DNA of 64,000 nucleotides. Origin: Anaerolineae bacterium (GTDB lineage Bacteria; Chloroflexota; Anaerolineae; UBA1429). Below the pieces are notes generated by a model. That model was not told the origin of the DNA. It searched no databases and saw nothing but the letters and a program-made list of their open reading frames with translations. The translations under genes and the position numbers were made by a program. The stretch lies in the NCBI GenBank assembly GCA_040766725.1, contig JAXGPZ010000001.1, positions 3,231,086 to 3,295,085 on the forward strand, in the 5' to 3' direction. Below are positions 3,648-45,204 of this stretch, in pieces (positions within the stretch are counted from its first letter, which is position 1; every line of letters starts with the position of its first letter).

Positions 3648-6137
3648 ATGACCCATCGCCTCGAACTGACGCCAGAGCAACTGACCCGGCGTACCGACCC
3701 TGCGTTGTTCGACTTTGCCTCTACGGCCGAGCTGGCGCCGCTGCGGCGCGTCATCGGCCAGGACCGTGCGGTCAGCGCCATCGAGTTTGGCGTCGAGATG
3801 CCGGGCGACGGCTACAACATCTTTGCGGTTGGGCCGGCCGGCTCGGGCCGCACCACGGCCGTGAGGCAGTTTCTGGATCAGCATGCCGCCAAGCGGCCCG
3901 CGCCGCCCGAGTGGTGCTATGTGTACAACTTTGAAGATGCCCGCGCGCCCAGAGCCATCAGCCTGCCGCCCGGGCGTGCCGTCGAGCTGCGCAACCAGAT
4001 GGCGCGTCTGGTCGAGCGCCTGCGTGAAGAGATCCCTCGCACCTTTGAGGGCCAGCCCTACGAAGATCGTCGGCGGCAGCTCTTGCTGCAGATGCAGCAG
4101 CGACAGCAGGCTCTGTATGAAGAGCTCGAGCGCTACCTCAACGAGCGCAACTTTGCGTTGATCCGCTCGCAGGCCGGCCTGGCCATCGCGCCGATGCTCA
4201 ACGGCGAGGTGCTCACCGCCGAAGCCTATCAAAAGCTGGATCCCGAGATCAAGAAAAAGTACGAATCGTTCCGGCCAGAGCTACAGGAGCAGTTCGACCG
4301 GGCCATGCGCGAGGCGCGCGATCTCGACCGCGAGGGCCGCAAGGCCATCGACAACATCAACGGCGAGATCGCCGGCTTTGTCGTGGACAACCTGATCGCC
4401 GAGATGCTCGAGGCCTTTGCCGATTGCGAAAAGGTGGTCGTCTTTCTGCGCGCCGTGCGCGACGACGTGGTGGCCAACGTCGATCGCTTCATGGGGCGCG
4501 ACGAGGAGCCCATGCCGCTGCCCATACCGGGCAGAGATGGTGGCGAGCGCTGGTTCCGACGCTATGAGGTCAACGTGCTCTCGAATGTGCCGACCTGCAA
4601 TTGCGCGCCGGTGACTGTCGAGGACAACCCCACCTATCACCGCCTGGTGGGCCGCATCGAGCACCGCACCGAGTTTGGCACGATGGTCACCGATTTCACC
4701 CAGATCCGCGCAGGCGCGCTGCACGCCGCCAACGGTGGCTATCTGGTGCTCGACGCGCGCCAGGTGCTCACCAACCAGCTTTCGTGGGAGGCGCTCAAGC
4801 GCGCCTTGCGCAACCACGAGATCAAGATCGAGGAGATGGCCCAGTTCTATGGGCTGGTGGCCGCGTCGACACTCGAGCCCGAGCCGATCCCGCTCGATGT
4901 CAAGGTGGTGCTGATCGGCGACCCCGCCCTGTACCAGCTCTTGGCCGCCTACGATGAGGACCTGCGCGAGCTGTTCAAGATCAAGGCCGAGTTCGTCACG
5001 CTGATCGACCGCGAAGAGGACCACCTGCGCGACTATGCCCAGTTCGCGGGCGATCTCTGCCGTCGCGAGGGGCTGCGTCACCTGGACCCCAGCGGCGTGG
5101 CCCGCCTGGTGGACGAGGCCTCACGCCTGGTTTCCGATCAGGGGCGCATGACGACGCGCTTTTCGGCCGTGGCCGACATCGTGCGCGAGGCCTCGTTCTG
5201 GGCCGGACGCGCAGAACGGGAGCTGATCACCGCCGAGGACATCGTGAGCGCGGTCGAGGCAGGCCGCAAGCGACTGGACTATCTGGCCGAGCGCTATCGC
5301 CAGAGCATCACCGACGGCACGGTGCTGATCGACACCGAGGGCGCAGTGGTGGGGCAGATCAACGGCCTCTCGGTGGCGCAGACGGCCGAGTTTGCCTTTG
5401 GCATGCCCTCGCGTGTCACCGCTCGCACCTTTTTGGGGCGGGCGGGCGTGGCCAGCATCGACCGCGAGGTCAAGATGACCGGCCCCATCCACGACAAGGG
5501 GCAGCTCATCCTTTCGTCCTATCTGGCCAGCCGCTTTGCGCAGCGCCACAGCCTGTCAGTGGCGGCCAGCCTCACGTTCGAGCAATCGTACGGCGGCATC
5601 GAGGGCGACAGCGCCTCTTCGACGGAGCTGTACGCGCTGCTGTCGAGCCTGGCCGAAGCGCCCATCAAGCAGAGCCTGGCCGTCACCGGCTCGGTGAACC
5701 AGTTCGGCCAGGTGCAGGCCATCGGCGGCGTCAACGCCAAGATCGAGGGCTTTTTCGATCTCTGTCAGGAGCGCGGGCTGACCGGCGACCAGGGCGTGCT
5801 CATCCCCGCATCCAACGTGCGGCACCTGATGCTGCGTGACGACGTCACCGCGGCGGTGCGCGAGGGCCGGTTCCACATCCATGCCGTCTCGACCATCGAG
5901 GAGGGCATCGAGCTGCTCACCGGCGTGCCGGCGGGCGAGGCTGACGAGAACGGCGACTATCCCGAGGGGACCATCTATCACCGGGTGCAGCGCAAGCTGG
6001 ACGCCTACCGGGAGGCGCTCAAGGCCGAGGCCAAGCCCAGGGGCAACGGCAACGGCGCCGGCACTGCGCCAGACGAATCTCCGGCCGACAGCGAGGTGCC
6101 CCCCAAAGAGCCATCGGTTGACGATCTCGCCAGCTAA
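3648..6137 (+). CDS. Lon-family protease (LonB/LonC-type AAA_32 plus Lon protease domain)
   Basis: GQDRA, GALHAANGGYLVL, catalytic Ser in GDSASS and Lys in AKIEGF. Confidence 0.9.
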   Translation: MTHRLELTPEQLTRRTDPALFDFASTAELAPLRRVIGQDRAVSAIEFGVEMPGDGYNIFAVGPAGSGRTTAVRQFLDQHAAKRPAPPEWCYVYNFEDARAPRAISLPPGRAVELRNQMARLVERLREEIPRTFEGQPYEDRRRQLLLQMQQRQQALYEELERYLNERNFALIRSQAGLAIAPMLNGEVLTAEAYQKLDPEIKKKYESFRPELQEQFDRAMREARDLDREGRKAIDNINGEIAGFVVDNLIAEMLEAFADCEKVVVFLRAVRDDVVANVDRFMGRDEEPMPLPIPGRDGGERWFRRYEVNVLSNVPTCNCAPVTVEDNPTYHRLVGRIEHRTEFGTMVTDFTQIRAGALHAANGGYLVLDARQVLTNQLSWEALKRALRNHEIKIEEMAQFYGLVAASTLEPEPIPLDVKVVLIGDPALYQLLAAYDEDLRELFKIKAEFVTLIDREEDHLRDYAQFAGDLCRREGLRHLDPSGVARLVDEASRLVSDQGRMTTRFSAVADIVREASFWAGRAERELITAEDIVSAVEAGRKRLDYLAERYRQSITDGTVLIDTEGAVVGQINGLSVAQTAEFAFGMPSRVTARTFLGRAGVASIDREVKMTGPIHDKGQLILSSYLASRFAQRHSLSVAASLTFEQSYGGIEGDSASSTELYALLSSLAEAPIKQSLAVTGSVNQFGQVQAIGGVNAKIEGFFDLCQERGLTGDQGVLIPASNVRHLMLRDDVTAAVREGRFHIHAVSTIEEGIELLTGVPAGEADENGDYPEGTIYHRVQRKLDAYREALKAEAKPRGNGNGAGTAPDESPADSEVPPKEPSVDDLAS

Positions 6138-6143
6138 ACGACA

Positions 6144-6167
6144 GAGAGCCCGCCTGAGCGGGCTCTC
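6144..6167. terminator. Hairpin between convergent genes
   Basis: GAGAGCCCGC-ctga-GCGGGCTCTC, perfect 10-bp stem; weak U-tract. Confidence 0.6.
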
Positions 6168-6183
6168 ACCTTGCGTATCTGGG

Positions 6184-6534
6184 TCAGGACGACGGCTCCA
6201 TCACCTCGAAATAGCGGCGCACAAAGCGCAGCACCTGGTAATACTCGGCGTTGCCGACGCTGGCGAGGTTATCGTTGATGAACACCAGCGGATAGACGCA
6301 AAAGCCCTGCTCAGCCCGGGCGATCTTGTCGCGATGCCGTGCGTAGGCCTCGGGATCGGCCACATCGTCATAGTGCACGCTGACGCGGTCGCCGTAAAAG
6401 CGCTGCAGATAGTCGCGGGTAAAGGCTGCGGTCTCCGACGAAGACCGGCGCGGGCCTCAACCGCCGCGACAGGCGGCCTCGTTGCGACTGTTGCCCAGAA
6501 TGGTGACCACGAGCTGTGGTGACGATGCGGACAT
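6184..6534 (-). CDS. Candidate selenoprotein, thioredoxin-fold YuzD/DUF1462-like, 116 aa, UGA (Sec) at codon 26
   Basis: ATG 6534 with SD GAGGGAGG. MSASSPQLVVTILGNSRNEAACRGG-U(6457-6459)-GPRRSSSETAAFTRDYLQRFYGDRVSVHYDDVAD...YPLVFINDNLASVG; continues in frame into the 64-aa track ORF. Confidence 0.7.
6424..6456 (-). promoter_or_regulatory. Candidate bacterial SECIS hairpin immediately 3' of the UGA
   Basis: mRNA: UGA-GGCCCGCGC-CGGUCU-ucgucgg-AGACCG-CAGCC; 6-bp apical stem plus lower pairing, loop about 15 nt from the UGA. Confidence 0.6.
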
Positions 6535-6551
6535 GGCGCCCTCCCTCTCAG

Positions 6552-6574
6552 TATATACCCCGTTGGGGTATATA
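6552..6574. promoter_or_regulatory. CsoR/RcnR-family-like operator
   Basis: Perfect palindrome TATATACCCC-GTT-GGGGTATATA, i.e. TACC-N7-GGTA with C/G tracts and AT flanks. Confidence 0.65.
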
Positions 6575-6575
6575 T

Positions 6576-6604
6576 AGGTTAGCACGGGCATCGCGCGGTG
6601 TCAA
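6576..6604 (-). promoter_or_regulatory. Sigma70 promoter for the candidate selenoprotein
   Basis: Minus strand TTGACA-N17-TAACCT directly upstream of the operator. Confidence 0.65.
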
Positions 6605-6605
6605 C

Positions 6606-6633
6606 TTGCATCGGCGGGCCAAACGGTTATAAT
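6606..6633 (+). promoter_or_regulatory. Promoter for tRNA-Val
   Basis: TTGCAT-N16-TATAAT, 11 nt before the tRNA. Confidence 0.55.
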
Positions 6634-6644
6634 GACGGTCGTCC

Positions 6645-6721
6645 GGGCAGGTAGCCCAGCTGGTTAGAGCGCCACGTTGACATCGTGGAGGCCGTAGGTT
6701 CGAGTCCTATCCTGCCCACCA
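6645..6721 (+). tRNA. tRNA-Val(GAC)
   Basis: GGGCAGG acceptor stem, anticodon arm CCACG-TTGACAT-CGTGG, GGTTCGAGTCC T-arm, encoded CCA. Confidence 0.97.
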
Positions 6722-11382: not shown

Positions 11383-11895
11383 ATGCGTTGGGAAGATCAG
11401 GGCGCCCTGCACAATGAACGCTATACCGTGGTGCCCCGCACGCTCATCTTTGTCAGCGCTGAGCGCCACCTCTTGTTGTTGCGCGGCTCGCCCCACAAGC
11501 GCATCTGGCCCAACCAGCTCAACGGCATCGGCGGCCACCTGGAGCCGGGCGAGCACCCTCTGGGGGGCGCGCTCCGCGAGCTGCGCGAAGAGGCCGGCCT
11601 GGATCTCCTCAGCCTCGACCTGCGCGGGCTGATCCACGTGGCAGGACGCCACCCCGACCCGGGCGTGTTGCTCTTTGTATTCACGGGCGAGGCGCTCTCG
11701 CGGCTCGTGAGGCCATCACACGAGGGCGCCCTGGAATGGCACCCCCTGGACGCCCTGCCCTACGACCAGATGGTGCCAGACCTGCCCCAACTGCTGCCGT
11801 TGCTCGTGGGCCCACAGCGCACGGCTGGGCTCGTCTATGGGCACTATGCCCTCGACGCCCACGGCGAGATGCACTACCGCTACCAGAGCGGCTAG
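11383..11895 (+). CDS. NUDIX hydrolase (MutT-like)
   Basis: Nudix box GGHLEPGEHPLGGALRELREEAG. Confidence 0.9.
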   Translation: MRWEDQGALHNERYTVVPRTLIFVSAERHLLLLRGSPHKRIWPNQLNGIGGHLEPGEHPLGGALRELREEAGLDLLSLDLRGLIHVAGRHPDPGVLLFVFTGEALSRLVRPSHEGALEWHPLDALPYDQMVPDLPQLLPLLVGPQRTAGLVYGHYALDAHGEMHYRYQSG

Positions 11896-34637: not shown

Positions 34638-34645
34638 TGCTGCAG

Positions 34646-34734
34646 ATGCTGGGGGAGCTCCATGCGGGCTGAGAGGATGGCGGCAGCCATCGACCCCTTC
34701 ACCTGAACTGGGTAATGCCAGCGTAGGGAAGCGT
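34646..34734 (+). promoter_or_regulatory. TPP riboswitch (THI box)
   Basis: GGGG...GGCTGAGAGG...GACCC..ACCTGAACTGGGTAATGCCAGCGTAGGGAA; P1 ATGCT/AGCGT. Confidence 0.95.
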
Positions 34735-34741
34735 GATGCGC

Positions 34742-34774
34742 ACAGACCGCTGGCATGGCGGTCTGTTTGTTTTT
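34742..34774 (+). terminator. Riboswitch expression-platform terminator
   Basis: ACAGACCGC-tggcatg-GCGGTCTGT followed by TTGTTTTT. Confidence 0.75.
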
Positions 34775-42675: not shown

Positions 42676-45120
42676 CTAGCGAAAGATCCTGACGCGCCGC
42701 AACAGGTTGGCGTTGGTCACCACCGTGATAGAGCTGCTGGCCATGGCCACCTCGGCCAGCGCCGGGTGCATCAGCCCCAGCATGGCCAGCGGCAGCATCA
42801 CCAGGTTGTAGAAGAACGCCCAGAAGAGGTTCTGCTTGATCTTGCGGAAGGTGGCCCGCGAGAGCCGCACCGCATCCACCAGCGCCCACAGGTCACTGCG
42901 CACCAGAGTGACGTCGGCAGCCTCGATGGCGATATCGGTGCCGGTGCCCACTGCCACGCCCACCGCGGCCGCCGTCAGGGCGGGCGCATCGTTGATGCCG
43001 TCGCCCACCATGATGGTGGCCCCCCGCTCGGCCTGCAGCCGCTCCACCTCGGCCACCTTGCCCGCGGGCAGCACCCCTGCCAGCACATGGTCGATGCCGG
43101 CCTGCCTGGCGATGGCCGCCGCCGTGCGCTCGTTGTCGCCGGTGAGCAGCGTCGTCTGCAGGCCCAGCGAGGCCAGCGCCTGCACCACCTCGCGCGCTTC
43201 GGGCTTGATGGGATCGGCCAGCGCCAGCAGGCCCAGCGCCTGCCCGTCTGCTGCCACGTGCACCACCGTCATGGCCTGCGCCTCGAGTTCATCGGCGCTG
43301 GCCTCCAGCAGCGAGGTGTCGACGCCCACCTCTTGCAGCCAGCGGGCGCTGCCCACCAGCACCTCACGGCCCTCTACGCGGCCCCGCATGCCACGGCCTC
43401 GCTCGGCGGTGACCCCGCTTACCTCGGGCACAGTCAGCGCGCGGCGCTCGGCATAGGCCGCCACAGCGCGGCCCAGCGGGTGTTCGCTGCCCCACTCGAC
43501 GGCTGCGGCCAGGCGCACGAGTTCTTCCTGACTGCCTCGCGCAGCCACCACCTGCATCACCTCGGGGCGCCCCAGCGTGAGGGTGCCGGTCTTGTCGAAC
43601 ACCACCTGACGCGCCTGCCCCATCGTCTGGATGGCGGCTCCGTCGCGGATGAGGATGCCGTGCTCGGCGCCCAGGCCGCTGCCCACCATCAGCGCTGTGG
43701 GCGTGGCCAGGCCGAGCGCGCAGGGGCAGGCGATCACCAGCGTGGCGATGGTGGCCACCATCGCCAGCGTCACCGGCGCCAGCCCGGGATCGACCCACGG
43801 CAAGAGACGCTGCGCCCAGGCCAACATCGGCTGCAGGCTCGCGCCGAACAGCAACCAGGCGAGCATCGTCAGCAGCGCCAGCCCCAGGATGACCGGCACA
43901 AAGACGGCCGTCACCCGGTCGGCAAAGGCCTGAATGGGCACCCGGCTGCCCTGGGCCGCCTCGACGAGCTTGACCACCTGCGACAGGAACGTGTCGGCCC
44001 CCACGCGCGTGGCCTGCACCTGCAACAGGCCCTCCTGGTTGAGCGTCGCGCCGATCACAGCGTCACCCACCTGCTTGGCGACCGGTAGCGACTCGCCGGT
44101 GGCCATCGATTCGTCCACGCTGCTCTCGCCCCACACCACCACGGCGTCGGTGGGCAGCTTTTCGCCCGGCCGCACCACCAGCACATCGCCCACCCGCACC
44201 TGCGAGATGGGCACCTCGTACTCCTGGCCATCCACCAGCAGCCGCGCGGTTTTGGCGCCCAGCTGCGCCAGCTTGCGAATGGCCTGCGAGGCCCGCCCCT
44301 TGGCGCTGGCCTCGATGTAACGCCCCGTCAGATGGATGGCCATGATCATGGCCGCGACAGCGCTATAGCTCGACAGCGCTGTGAACAACGACAGCGGGCC
44401 GCTGATCCACGAGGCGGTGGTGCCCACAGCGATGAGCACATCCATGTTGGCGCCGCCATGGGTGATCGACTTGAGGGCCGAGCGGAAGGTGGCGCCGCCA
44501 GGCCAGACCAGCACCGGCAGGGCCAGCAGCGACAGAGCCACCTCGATGGCCGTCATGCTGGGCCACATGAACCCGAACGCCATGTGCGCCAGCATCAGCA
44601 ACATCACCGGCACGGTAAAGACCCAGGCGATCACCATGCGGCGGCGGGCGGCCTGCATCTTGAGGGCGTCCAGGTCTGGCCCCTGGGCGATAAGGTCTTC
44701 TTCGAGGGGCAGCAGCTCATAGCCCGCCCCCGTGATGGCCTGCCGCAGCGTGTCGAGGGTGACCAGCTCGGGCAGATACTCTACGGTGGCACGTTCGGTG
44801 GCCAGGTTGGCCTGGGCGCTCAGCACGCCGTCGACGCGTGAAAGGGCGCGCTCGACGTGGCGCACGCACGCCGCGCAGGTCATGCCGCCGATGGGCAGCG
44901 CCTGCTTGACGGTGCGGACGTCATAGCCTGCATCGCGCACAGCCGCCACCAGGCCGGCGCCAGTGATCACTGTCGGATCATAGGTTACTGCGGCCTGTTC
45001 GGTGGCGATGTTGACGGCGGCGTCGGTTACCCCCGTCGCGCGGCTCAAGCTCCGCTCGACCGTGCGCGAACAGGCGGCGCAGGTCATGCCCAGGACATCG
45101 AGTTGTACGTGGTGCGTCAT
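42676..45120 (-). CDS. copA: Cu(I)-translocating P1B-type ATPase
   Basis: Two GMTCAAC HMA domains, TGES, CPC, DKTGT, GDGIND, YN and M..SS TM ligands. Confidence 0.93.
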
Positions 45121-45138
45121 GGTCTATTCCTCACTCAC

Positions 45139-45170
45139 ATTCTACAATAGTTGAGTGTATTAGTCAACTA
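45139..45170 (-). promoter_or_regulatory. copA promoter with an overlapping inverted repeat
   Basis: Minus strand TTGACT-N17-TAGAAT; TAGTTGA-N9-TCAACTA (45148-45170) overlaps the -35 and spacer. Confidence 0.6.
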
Positions 45171-45204
45171 AGGAGAGGCGAGCGGAGGCTGGCCGCACAG
45201 AGGC

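Follow-up and report, generated by a model that had tools for sequence, protein, structure and literature searches.

A gene on the minus strand at positions 6184–6534 of a 64,000-nucleotide stretch of DNA from an Anaerolineae bacterium (phylum Chloroflexota; contig JAXGPZ010000001.1; hereafter the window) very probably codes for a cytoplasmic selenoprotein of 116 residues that belongs to YuzD/DUF1462, a family with a thioredoxin fold, and we infer, with good confidence, that its in-frame UGA codon is read as selenocysteine (Sec). A hidden Sec protein with this fold had been proposed in a preliminary description of the window. The proposal is supported because the UGA is conserved, the sequence on both of its sides is coding, homologues have Cys at the same position, a covarying hairpin follows the codon, and UGA otherwise serves as a stop. 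The features by which bacterial selenoproteins are recognized computationally were all found, apart from the Sec machinery in this genome.

The interrupted reading frame and its conservation

The frame starts with an ATG (6534–6532), runs through 25 sense codons to a TGA (6459–6457), continues for 90 codons and ends at a second TGA (6186–6184). The TGA at 6459–6457, the proposed Sec26, is the sole interruption of the 116 codons. The read-through translation is MSASSPQLVVTILGNSRNEAAC-RGG-*-GPRRSSSETAAFTRDYLQRFYGDRV...YPLVFINDNLASVGNAEYYQVLRFVRRYFEVMEPSS (the asterisk marks the UGA), and the whole gene was delimited from this translation, from Pfam PF07315 and from the match to structure 1XG8 (see below). 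The N-terminal 25 codons (6460–6534; MSASSPQLVVTILGNSRNEAACRGG, with SASSPQLVVTILGNSR as an example of a peptide encoded before the UGA) specify strand beta-1 and a loop with Cys22 (TGT, 6471–6469), and this part of the protein is conserved in all relatives. The C-terminal 90 codons (6187–6456) specify helix alpha-1, a conserved YPLV stretch and the remainder of the thioredoxin-like fold, as judged from the model of a relative and Foldseek. No hairpin of the type of a selenocysteine insertion sequence (SECIS) follows the genuine stop at 6184–6186. The upstream extension to an ATG, broken by a single TGA, had been described before, and all of its elements were located. A mechanical list of open reading frames (ORFs) contained only a 64-residue ORF with a GTG start (6184–6378) and a 44-residue upstream ORF ending at the TGA. 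The sequence around the gene was recovered in four independent metagenome assemblies (from an anaerobic digester, wastewater, sludge and soil) with 0–1 differences, none of them reported at the TGA.

The same in-frame TGA was retained in every family relative whose DNA was read. Both the TGA and the upstream frame were kept in 16 loci from three lineages at 72–99% identity (consensus ...QLVVTILGNSR[NS]E[AI]ACR[GS]G*GPRRSSLETA). Assembly GCA_050949365.1 carries the gene in a locus with 99% identity. The codon was also present in a GTDB genome at 66% identity and in the divergent members L018, L019, L075, L076, L078 and L079 (roughly 30–47% identity), which were found by protein similarity. Genomes were searched with a 30-nt DNA pattern of 21 fixed bases comprising the TGA plus the hairpin, for which we estimated less than one match by chance. 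It matched 51 species-level genomes, all Chloroflexota (Anaerolineae, Anaerolineales, Caldilineae and unclassified), and each of them contained a read-through ORF with an N-terminal part of 20–27 residues of the form V.V.V[LF]GN...E.C..G-U-GP.[RW]SS.ET, where U is Sec. Overall, the TGA is carried by these 51 genomes and about ten metagenome lineages, at protein identities as low as about 31%. In the metagenomes of runs X10 and X17, contigs of other organisms matched only positions 6430–6472 of the window, that is, 33–43 nt of UGA and hairpin at 90–95% identity; the DNA of this core is thus conserved more widely than the remaining gene.

Selection on the two sides of the TGA was compared in 19 close pairs. 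Synonymous divergence (pS), nonsynonymous divergence (pN) and pN/pS were 0.37, 0.083 and 0.225 for the 20 codons before the TGA, and 0.43, 0.081 and 0.190 for the 70 codons after the hairpin. Because pN/pS is similar on both sides and the N-terminal residues form strand beta-1 in the model of the relative P0011, the stretch upstream of the TGA is protein-coding and under purifying selection like the downstream part. Downstream of the TGA the members share no start codon: TCG, TTG, GAG or GCG precedes GAG-ACC, and the called starts vary by member. TGA is the stop of 24 of the 44 long coding-like ORFs in the window and of 23 of 55 genes of the family, the window gene being one of them. Since it is otherwise the commonest stop in the window, UGA is not reassigned here.

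Public databases hold the gene in altered form. Searching 1.8 billion representative proteins with the 90 residues after the UGA yielded 29 matches, nearly all of 57–88 residues and starting at or after the TGA column; the relatives in the protein database (73–84 residues) all start just after it. Truncation by standard annotation had been anticipated, and it is seen both in these entries and in the 64-residue ORF of the window. A few 'full-length' entries (P0011, P0029, P0032, P0036, P0037 and P0038; loci L018 and L019) carry Trp at the Sec column. When the DNA of P0011 and P0032 was read, the Trp codon was TGA, and genetic code table 4 had been applied to contigs of about 550 bp. Homologues with Trp, or a code with UGA as Trp, were ruled out by the TGA in the DNA together with the use of UGA as main stop codon. 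Table 4 translation of short metagenome contigs may be a general artefact that disguises selenoproteins. The public entries found were either truncated or supplied with a false Trp, which amounts to a systematic database error, and models like PF07315 therefore probably under-represent the Sec branch. The same search returned two long proteins, P0010 (950 residues, 9 matched stretches) and P0024 (869 residues, 4 stretches), which match the middle of the query repeatedly; the cause may be a repeated DUF1462-like segment or an artefact of composition.

The hairpin downstream of the UGA

The core of the minimum-free-energy structure predicted by RNAfold is a SECIS-like hairpin, CGGUCUUC[GUC]GGAGACCG, at 6429–6447 on the minus strand. 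Its conserved core consists of a 7-bp stem (6446–6440 paired with 6436–6430) closed by a G-N-N triloop, and it starts 10 nt after the UGA. A hairpin with an additional lower GGC/GCC pairing had been noticed earlier at this place. The stem directly after the UGA is borne out by covariation in relatives; the lower pairing is predicted by folding, but it is not conserved in relatives.

Covariation was assessed in ten members found by protein similarity alone (the window gene, L007, L012, L017, L018, L019, L075, L076, L078 and L079). In this set 98.6% of the stem cells were paired, a value that 0 of 500 shuffles reached. When the 3' arm was slid by 1–3 columns as a control, 43–56% of the cells were paired. 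Double compensatory changes were present in three of the seven pairs (G-C to A-U; C-G to A-U and U-A). The encoded residues are changed in L076 (AUCUCA[GGC]UGAGAU, encoding QSQAEI) and L079 (AGUCUUC[GGU]GAAGACU, encoding QSSVKT), with the stem in register. All 54 sequences have G as the first base of the loop, although this base is a four-fold degenerate third position within a Ser codon, and other four-fold sites near the hairpin vary freely in the same sequences. Synonymous divergence was 0.14 at the hairpin versus 0.37–0.43 in its flanks (the 19 close pairs), and in four close relatives found by protein similarity it was 0.11–0.31 in the ten codons of the hairpin versus 0.39–0.70 in the flanks. 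P0051, a form of the protein with Cys, is without the hairpin. Overall, the hairpin behaves as a functional RNA structure that is kept through compensatory changes. It both encodes conserved residues and folds as RNA, which makes it a clean example of double constraint on one stretch.

In bacterial SECIS elements, as exemplified by E. coli fdhF and captured in the bSECISearch rules of Zhang and Gladyshev (2005), the loop lies 16–37 nt from the UGA. The apical loop of the window hairpin is 20 nt from the U of UGA and within this range. Like the fdhF-type element, the hairpin has a stem that starts about 10–11 nt after the UGA, lies inside the ORF and has G as the first base of its loop. It differs from fdhF in having a triloop on a perfect 7–8-bp stem and no bulged U, and binding of SelB is putative.

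Fold, selenocysteine competence and competing explanations

With Sec written as Cys, the read-through protein matched Pfam PF07315 (DUF1462) at 30.1 bits (cut-off 25; E = 5.9e-7). The top sequence and fold match of the family was 1XG8, the solved YuzD homologue SA0798 of S. aureus (E = 6.8e-9 for the family profile). In the profile alignment the Sec column falls on the second Cys of C-A-S-C in 1XG8, in agreement with the alignment to YuzD/DUF1462 that had been given in the preliminary description. The uninterrupted homologues all have Cys in this column, none has Trp or Gly, and they are single ORFs of the same length as the read-through frame. P0051 reads E-C-D-A-T-C-G-T-D-W-S-S-A-E, a CxxxC with a TGC codon in register with the CxxxU of the window gene, and its gene is flanked by a thioredoxin gene on one side and a gene resembling thioredoxin reductase on the other. 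In P0022 a lone Cys stands in the Sec column. Among homologues, both this column (UGA in all family loci read; Cys in P0051, P0022 and 1XG8) and the N-terminal coding sequence are conserved, two of the points on which the Sec proposal had been made to depend.

A structure model was made for the relative P0011, which is 47% identical to the window protein, and not for the window protein itself. In this AlphaFold2 model (predicted local distance difference test, pLDDT, 88; predicted template modelling score, pTM, 0.82) the N-terminal residues form strand beta-1, and the Cys and Sec positions lie in the loop preceding helix alpha-1. Foldseek returned 1XG8 first and thioredoxins next, and also the thioredoxin-fold metallochaperone ArsD. 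The YPLV stretch presumably occupies the position of the thioredoxin cis-Pro loop. The motif of the window gene is C-R-G-G-U; a CxxC at the start of helix alpha-1 is absent, and only its second position has an equivalent. The C-x-x-x-U motif described earlier therefore applies to the window gene, but not as a fixed motif of the family, as the Cys lies 0–5 residues before the Sec. Because of this variable spacing, the Cys-x(0-5)-Sec site is predicted to be a flexible loop and not a rigid CxxC helix cap, and such an arrangement would suit metal binding or a selenenylsulfide.

The window protein resembles YuzD/1XG8 in length, in the thioredoxin-like beta-alpha-beta ... beta-beta-alpha fold, and in the place of the active-site loop, with an S-S/T-x-D/E motif and the conserved YPL stretch after it. 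The two differ in that the second Cys of CxxC is UGA/Sec in the window branch and the first Cys is shifted (CxxxU, and 0–5 residues in relatives). YuzD occurs in Bacillota, whereas the Sec branch is restricted to Chloroflexota and comes with the SECIS hairpin and a CsoR-type operator. Thioredoxin-fold selenoproteins of bacteria (Sec forms of thioredoxin, glutaredoxin/Uxx-star, Prx-like, DsbA-like and SelW-like proteins) likewise have Sec in a CxxC-equivalent motif of a small protein, Cys homologues and a SECIS within the coding sequence. The window family is unlike them in its Pfam family, in having Sec at the C-terminal position of the pair and in the variable spacing of the Cys. No NCBIfam model matched the YuzD-like family. 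The table of prokaryotic selenoprotein families in a 2026 review contains no PF07315, no '1462' and no CxxxU; the family goes unmentioned in the supplements of the deep-Sep paper; and a full-text literature search found no report of a DUF1462/YuzD selenoprotein (DUF1462 came up in a single paper, on a subject other than selenium). On the best reading, this is the first selenoprotein seen in YuzD/DUF1462, that is, a new family of a well-known kind with no new mechanism.

We infer the Sec competence of this organism from its relatives and from the literature. In seven loci (L027, L040, L045, L050, L057, L062 and L071) a gene for a membrane-anchored thioredoxin-like protein with an in-frame TGA lies directly upstream of the family gene, at about -590 to -70 nt from the family TGA. 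It encodes ...VEFYSNT-U-SACL.AKP, with UxxC at the thioredoxin active site, and has a hairpin CCCAUC[GUG]GAUGGG about 24 nt after its TGA, with an A-U to G-C compensatory change in L050. The gene is called only as a C-terminal fragment of 71–79 residues, and from its sequence it looks like a second selenoprotein in the same operon. In five loci (L032, L033, L038, L042 and L047) a glutaredoxin-PDZ fusion with a TGA (...YTTPT-U-PYC...) is encoded about 1.3–3.4 kb downstream of the family gene. It matched the NCBIfam model NF041212, 'Uxx-star family glutaredoxin-like (seleno)protein', at 68.4 bits (cut-off 66); a conserved hairpin, GCGAAAG-AGUUY-CUUUCGC, follows its TGA, and its orthologues in L049 and L055 have Cys. 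Selenoprotein genes of known type thus stand beside the family gene in at least 12 genomes. The Sec trait (PMC5322559) and tRNA-Sec (PMC5389517) have been reported in Chloroflexi. SelB genes are reported both for A. thermophila and for single-cell genomes of Anaerolineales, and some Anaerolineales genomes are reported to have Sec-type formate dehydrogenases (PMC4959059). A scan of the window for other selenoprotein candidates (an in-frame TGA between coding-like segments) returned only adjacent genes and an artefact at 11718.

Several observations weigh against the selenoprotein reading. The folding energy of the hairpin is unexceptional (z = -1.0; RNAfold, 67% G+C), and a scan of 6150–6650 with the Rfam covariance models at E up to 10 gave no match to a SECIS family. 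Most of the genome matches were chosen by a pattern that fixes the stem; the covariation comes from ten sequences, and its double changes from three. The partner Cys has no fixed distance from the Sec across members, which is unusual for a redox site of the CxxC type. Motif and ARAGORN scans detected no selA, selB, selC, selD or tRNA-Sec in the 64-kb window or in the family loci. This last result also fits a decoding of the UGA as something other than Sec, either by near-cognate read-through that the hairpin stimulates (inserting Trp, Cys, Arg or Gly) or through SelB, with Cys delivered by a tRNA-Sec-like tRNA(Cys). Any recoding stimulated by a hairpin would account equally well for the retained UGA, the conserved coding sequence and the hairpin, and there are public entries with Trp at this position. 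These entries, however, hold TGA read under table 4 and not TGG, and the uninterrupted homologues show the Sec/Cys signature, with Cys at the column throughout and neither Trp nor Gly. The position, the size and the G-first loop of the hairpin fit the bacterial SECIS rules, and known selenoprotein families with an active-site TGA occur in the same clusters. We regard decoding as another amino acid as unlikely.

It is very unlikely that the UGA is a true stop which separates a 25-residue leader peptide from a truncated protein of 64–84 residues, with the hairpin acting in translational coupling or attenuation. Gene callers output exactly such products, and UGA is the commonest stop codon in the window, but the called starts differ between members with none conserved downstream of it, and the 20 codons upstream of the UGA show the same mode of evolution as the remaining protein. 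Without the upstream part, strand beta-1, the thioredoxin-like fold and the CxxC-equivalent site would be lost, and in the Cys homologues one ORF of equal length runs through without interruption. That the gene is a nonsense pseudogene or results from an error of assembly, as a single TGA in an otherwise intact frame might suggest, is hardly credible: four independent assemblies agree, the TGA is kept in more than 55 lineages with purifying selection on both sides, the gene is transcribed, and the 30–99% identity range of the relatives excludes contaminating copies of one sequence.

Promoter, operator and gene neighbourhood

The expression signals of the family gene are on the minus strand. 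A -35 hexamer TTGACA (6599–6604) is conserved in stand-alone family loci, and the position of the -10 hexamer TAACCT (6576–6581), 17 nt after it, is conserved as well, with TAACCT, TAATCT, TATCCT, TATACT or TATAAT in relatives. A consensus promoter scanner made no call, since the -10 hexamer matches at 3 of 6 positions only. The Shine-Dalgarno sequence GAGGGAGG (6540–6547) lies 5 nt before the ATG, and a purine-rich sequence is conserved there in relatives. Both the Shine-Dalgarno sequence and the TTGACA-N17-TAACCT promoter had been pointed out earlier, and they are where they were said to be. An intrinsic terminator, GAGAGCCCG-CTCAGG-CGGGCTCTC with a T-rich tail (6144–6167), was detected by a terminator scan and shows compensatory changes in relatives. 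In metatranscriptomes of activated sludge and of a biogas fermenter, contigs cover 6150–6567, including the upstream ORF and the UGA; the mRNA therefore contains both. No RNA coverage was found at 6590–6621 or below 6142. The contigs end at 6150, just inside the terminator, and at 6567, at the expected start 7–9 nt after the -10 hexamer, but the depth is low and these ends are merely indicative.

Directly after the -10 hexamer, between it and the Shine-Dalgarno sequence and across the likely transcription start, lies a CsoR/CstR-type operator, ATATACCCCAACGGGGTATAT (6553–6573), a TAC-N9-GTA pseudo-palindrome present in a single copy and conserved in family loci. This operator was missed in the preliminary description and is the strongest clue to function. 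ATACCC-N5-GGGTAT occurs once in the 64 kb, versus 0.01 expected. TACCC-N5-GGGTA was found exactly once in 45 of 55 family loci (391 kb) and nowhere else in them, with about 0.4 expected by chance by our own estimate. In each of these 45 loci it belongs to the promoter from which the family gene is transcribed, at -93 to -130 from the TGA in stand-alone genes and at about -530 to -560 if a CoA_binding_2 gene precedes. The operator adjoins a divergent CsoR-family gene in L040 and L057. In L019 it sits between the -35 and -10 hexamers, which argues for a DNA site and not an RNA element.

The type-2 CsoR operator consensus is ATATACCCCTNAGGGGTATAT, with a TAC-N9-GTA rule (PMC3902906), and the window operator differs from it at two spacer positions only. 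It also resembles the S. mitis operator of CstR, a persulfide sensor (ATATACCCTTATGGGGTATAT; PMC8643695), and overlap with the promoter is typical of repressor sites. Known targets of CsoR are copZA and csoR, and those of CstR are genes for sulfide oxidation and CoA-persulfide; a YuzD-like selenoprotein is not among the targets named in PMC3902906 and PMC8643695. By its sequence, the operator points to a predicted induction by copper or persulfide.

In L035, L040 and L057, a CsoR-family gene (PF02583) is found no more than 2 kb from the family gene. The residue four positions before the second Cys of their products, which we take to be the position of the Cu(I)-ligating His of CsoR, is His in L035 and Gln in the other two, so that the effector may differ between lineages. 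In view of two results, a link with copper specifically is only putative: no CsoR-family gene (PF02583) was found in the 64-kb window, and the CopA-like gene of the window is without a CsoR-type operator. A strictly copper-specific reading of the operator was dropped on account of this CopA-like gene and of CstR, which uses the same operator form. The CopA-like gene (42676–45120, minus strand) encodes a P-type ATPase with GMTCAAC and CPC motifs. Its promoter (45130–45180) is TTGACT-17-TAGAAT with a different inverted repeat, TAGTTGA-N9-TCAACTA. Because this repeat takes the place of a CsoR-type box, copper export in this organism seems to be under a regulator other than a CsoR-type one.

Several genes recur around the family gene. 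A CoA_binding_2 gene lies upstream on the same strand in 15 loci, and a gene for a two-domain PDO/glutaredoxin-like protein lies downstream on the same strand in 11; both are co-operonic with Sec forms. Further downstream neighbours are a small 4Fe-4S protein (8 loci) and an extracytoplasmic function (ECF) sigma/anti-sigma pair (6–7 loci). The glutaredoxin-PDZ gene clusters with PDO and 4Fe-4S protein genes. In L059 (CAVVMX010000002.1) the family ORF continues into the PDO gene, and there is a frameshift in the glutaredoxin-PDZ gene; both features look like assembly errors (indels) and not like real fusions. In 21 of 54 loci a gene for a LonC-like protease converges on the family gene. The window is among these loci, and there the protease gene encodes 829 residues (3648–6137, plus strand; LonC_helical, AAA_32 and Lon_C domains) and has a terminator region in common with the family gene. 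On the other side, a tRNA-Val(GAC) gene (6645–6721, plus strand) diverges from the promoter of the family gene and is highly represented in one metatranscriptome, with a depth of up to 174; it is present in the closest relatives L001 and L007, and not in L012 and L017. Elsewhere, the window holds a thiamine pyrophosphate (TPP) riboswitch at 34641–34746 on the plus strand (67 bits; gathering score 54.3).

In the mechanism that we propose, transcription would start at about 6567–6569 from a sigma-70-type promoter overlapped by the CsoR-family operator, giving a monocistronic mRNA that ends at the terminator at 6167–6144. Translation would begin at the ATG at 6534. SelB with Sec-tRNA(Sec) would bind the 7–8-bp hairpin with its G-U-C loop 10 nt downstream of the UGA at 6459–6457; Sec would then be inserted at the UGA, and translation would proceed to the genuine UGA stop at 6186–6184. 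Sec26 would occupy the second-Cys position of the YuzD CxxC, in the loop between strand beta-1 and helix alpha-1, and could form with Cys22 a selenenylsulfide redox pair or a pair that binds soft metals. A CsoR-family protein is predicted to repress the gene until relieved by its effector, which would be Cu(I) for CsoR proper and persulfide or reactive sulfur species for CstR. The product would be either a thiol/selenol oxidoreductase induced by stress or a protein that handles Cu(I); its redox chemistry is putative, as are the identity of the regulator and the effector.

More tentatively, the Sec YuzD-like protein could be the main target through which a CsoR-family stress sensor acts in Anaerolineae, induced by copper or persulfide, with a Cys-x(0-5)-Sec loop for binding Cu(I) or for resolving persulfides or thiols damaged by Cu. 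Together with its neighbours, the Sec-thioredoxin-like, Sec-glutaredoxin-PDZ, PDO and CoA-binding proteins, it might then act as an unrecognized selenium-based thiol-stress module, a proposal that we hold to be possible but somewhat doubtful. With a structure solved since 2004, DUF1462/YuzD has to our knowledge no known role, and the close association of the gene with a CsoR/CstR-type operator and with further thiol-redox (seleno)proteins provides a testable hypothesis on its function. The gene is a well-supported addition to the bacterial selenoproteome from the Chloroflexota class Anaerolineae, which is abundant in digesters and sludge and for which we found few selenoprotein reports. If it is true that the protein belongs to such a thiol-stress module, this would be the first functional handle on the whole YuzD/DUF1462 family.

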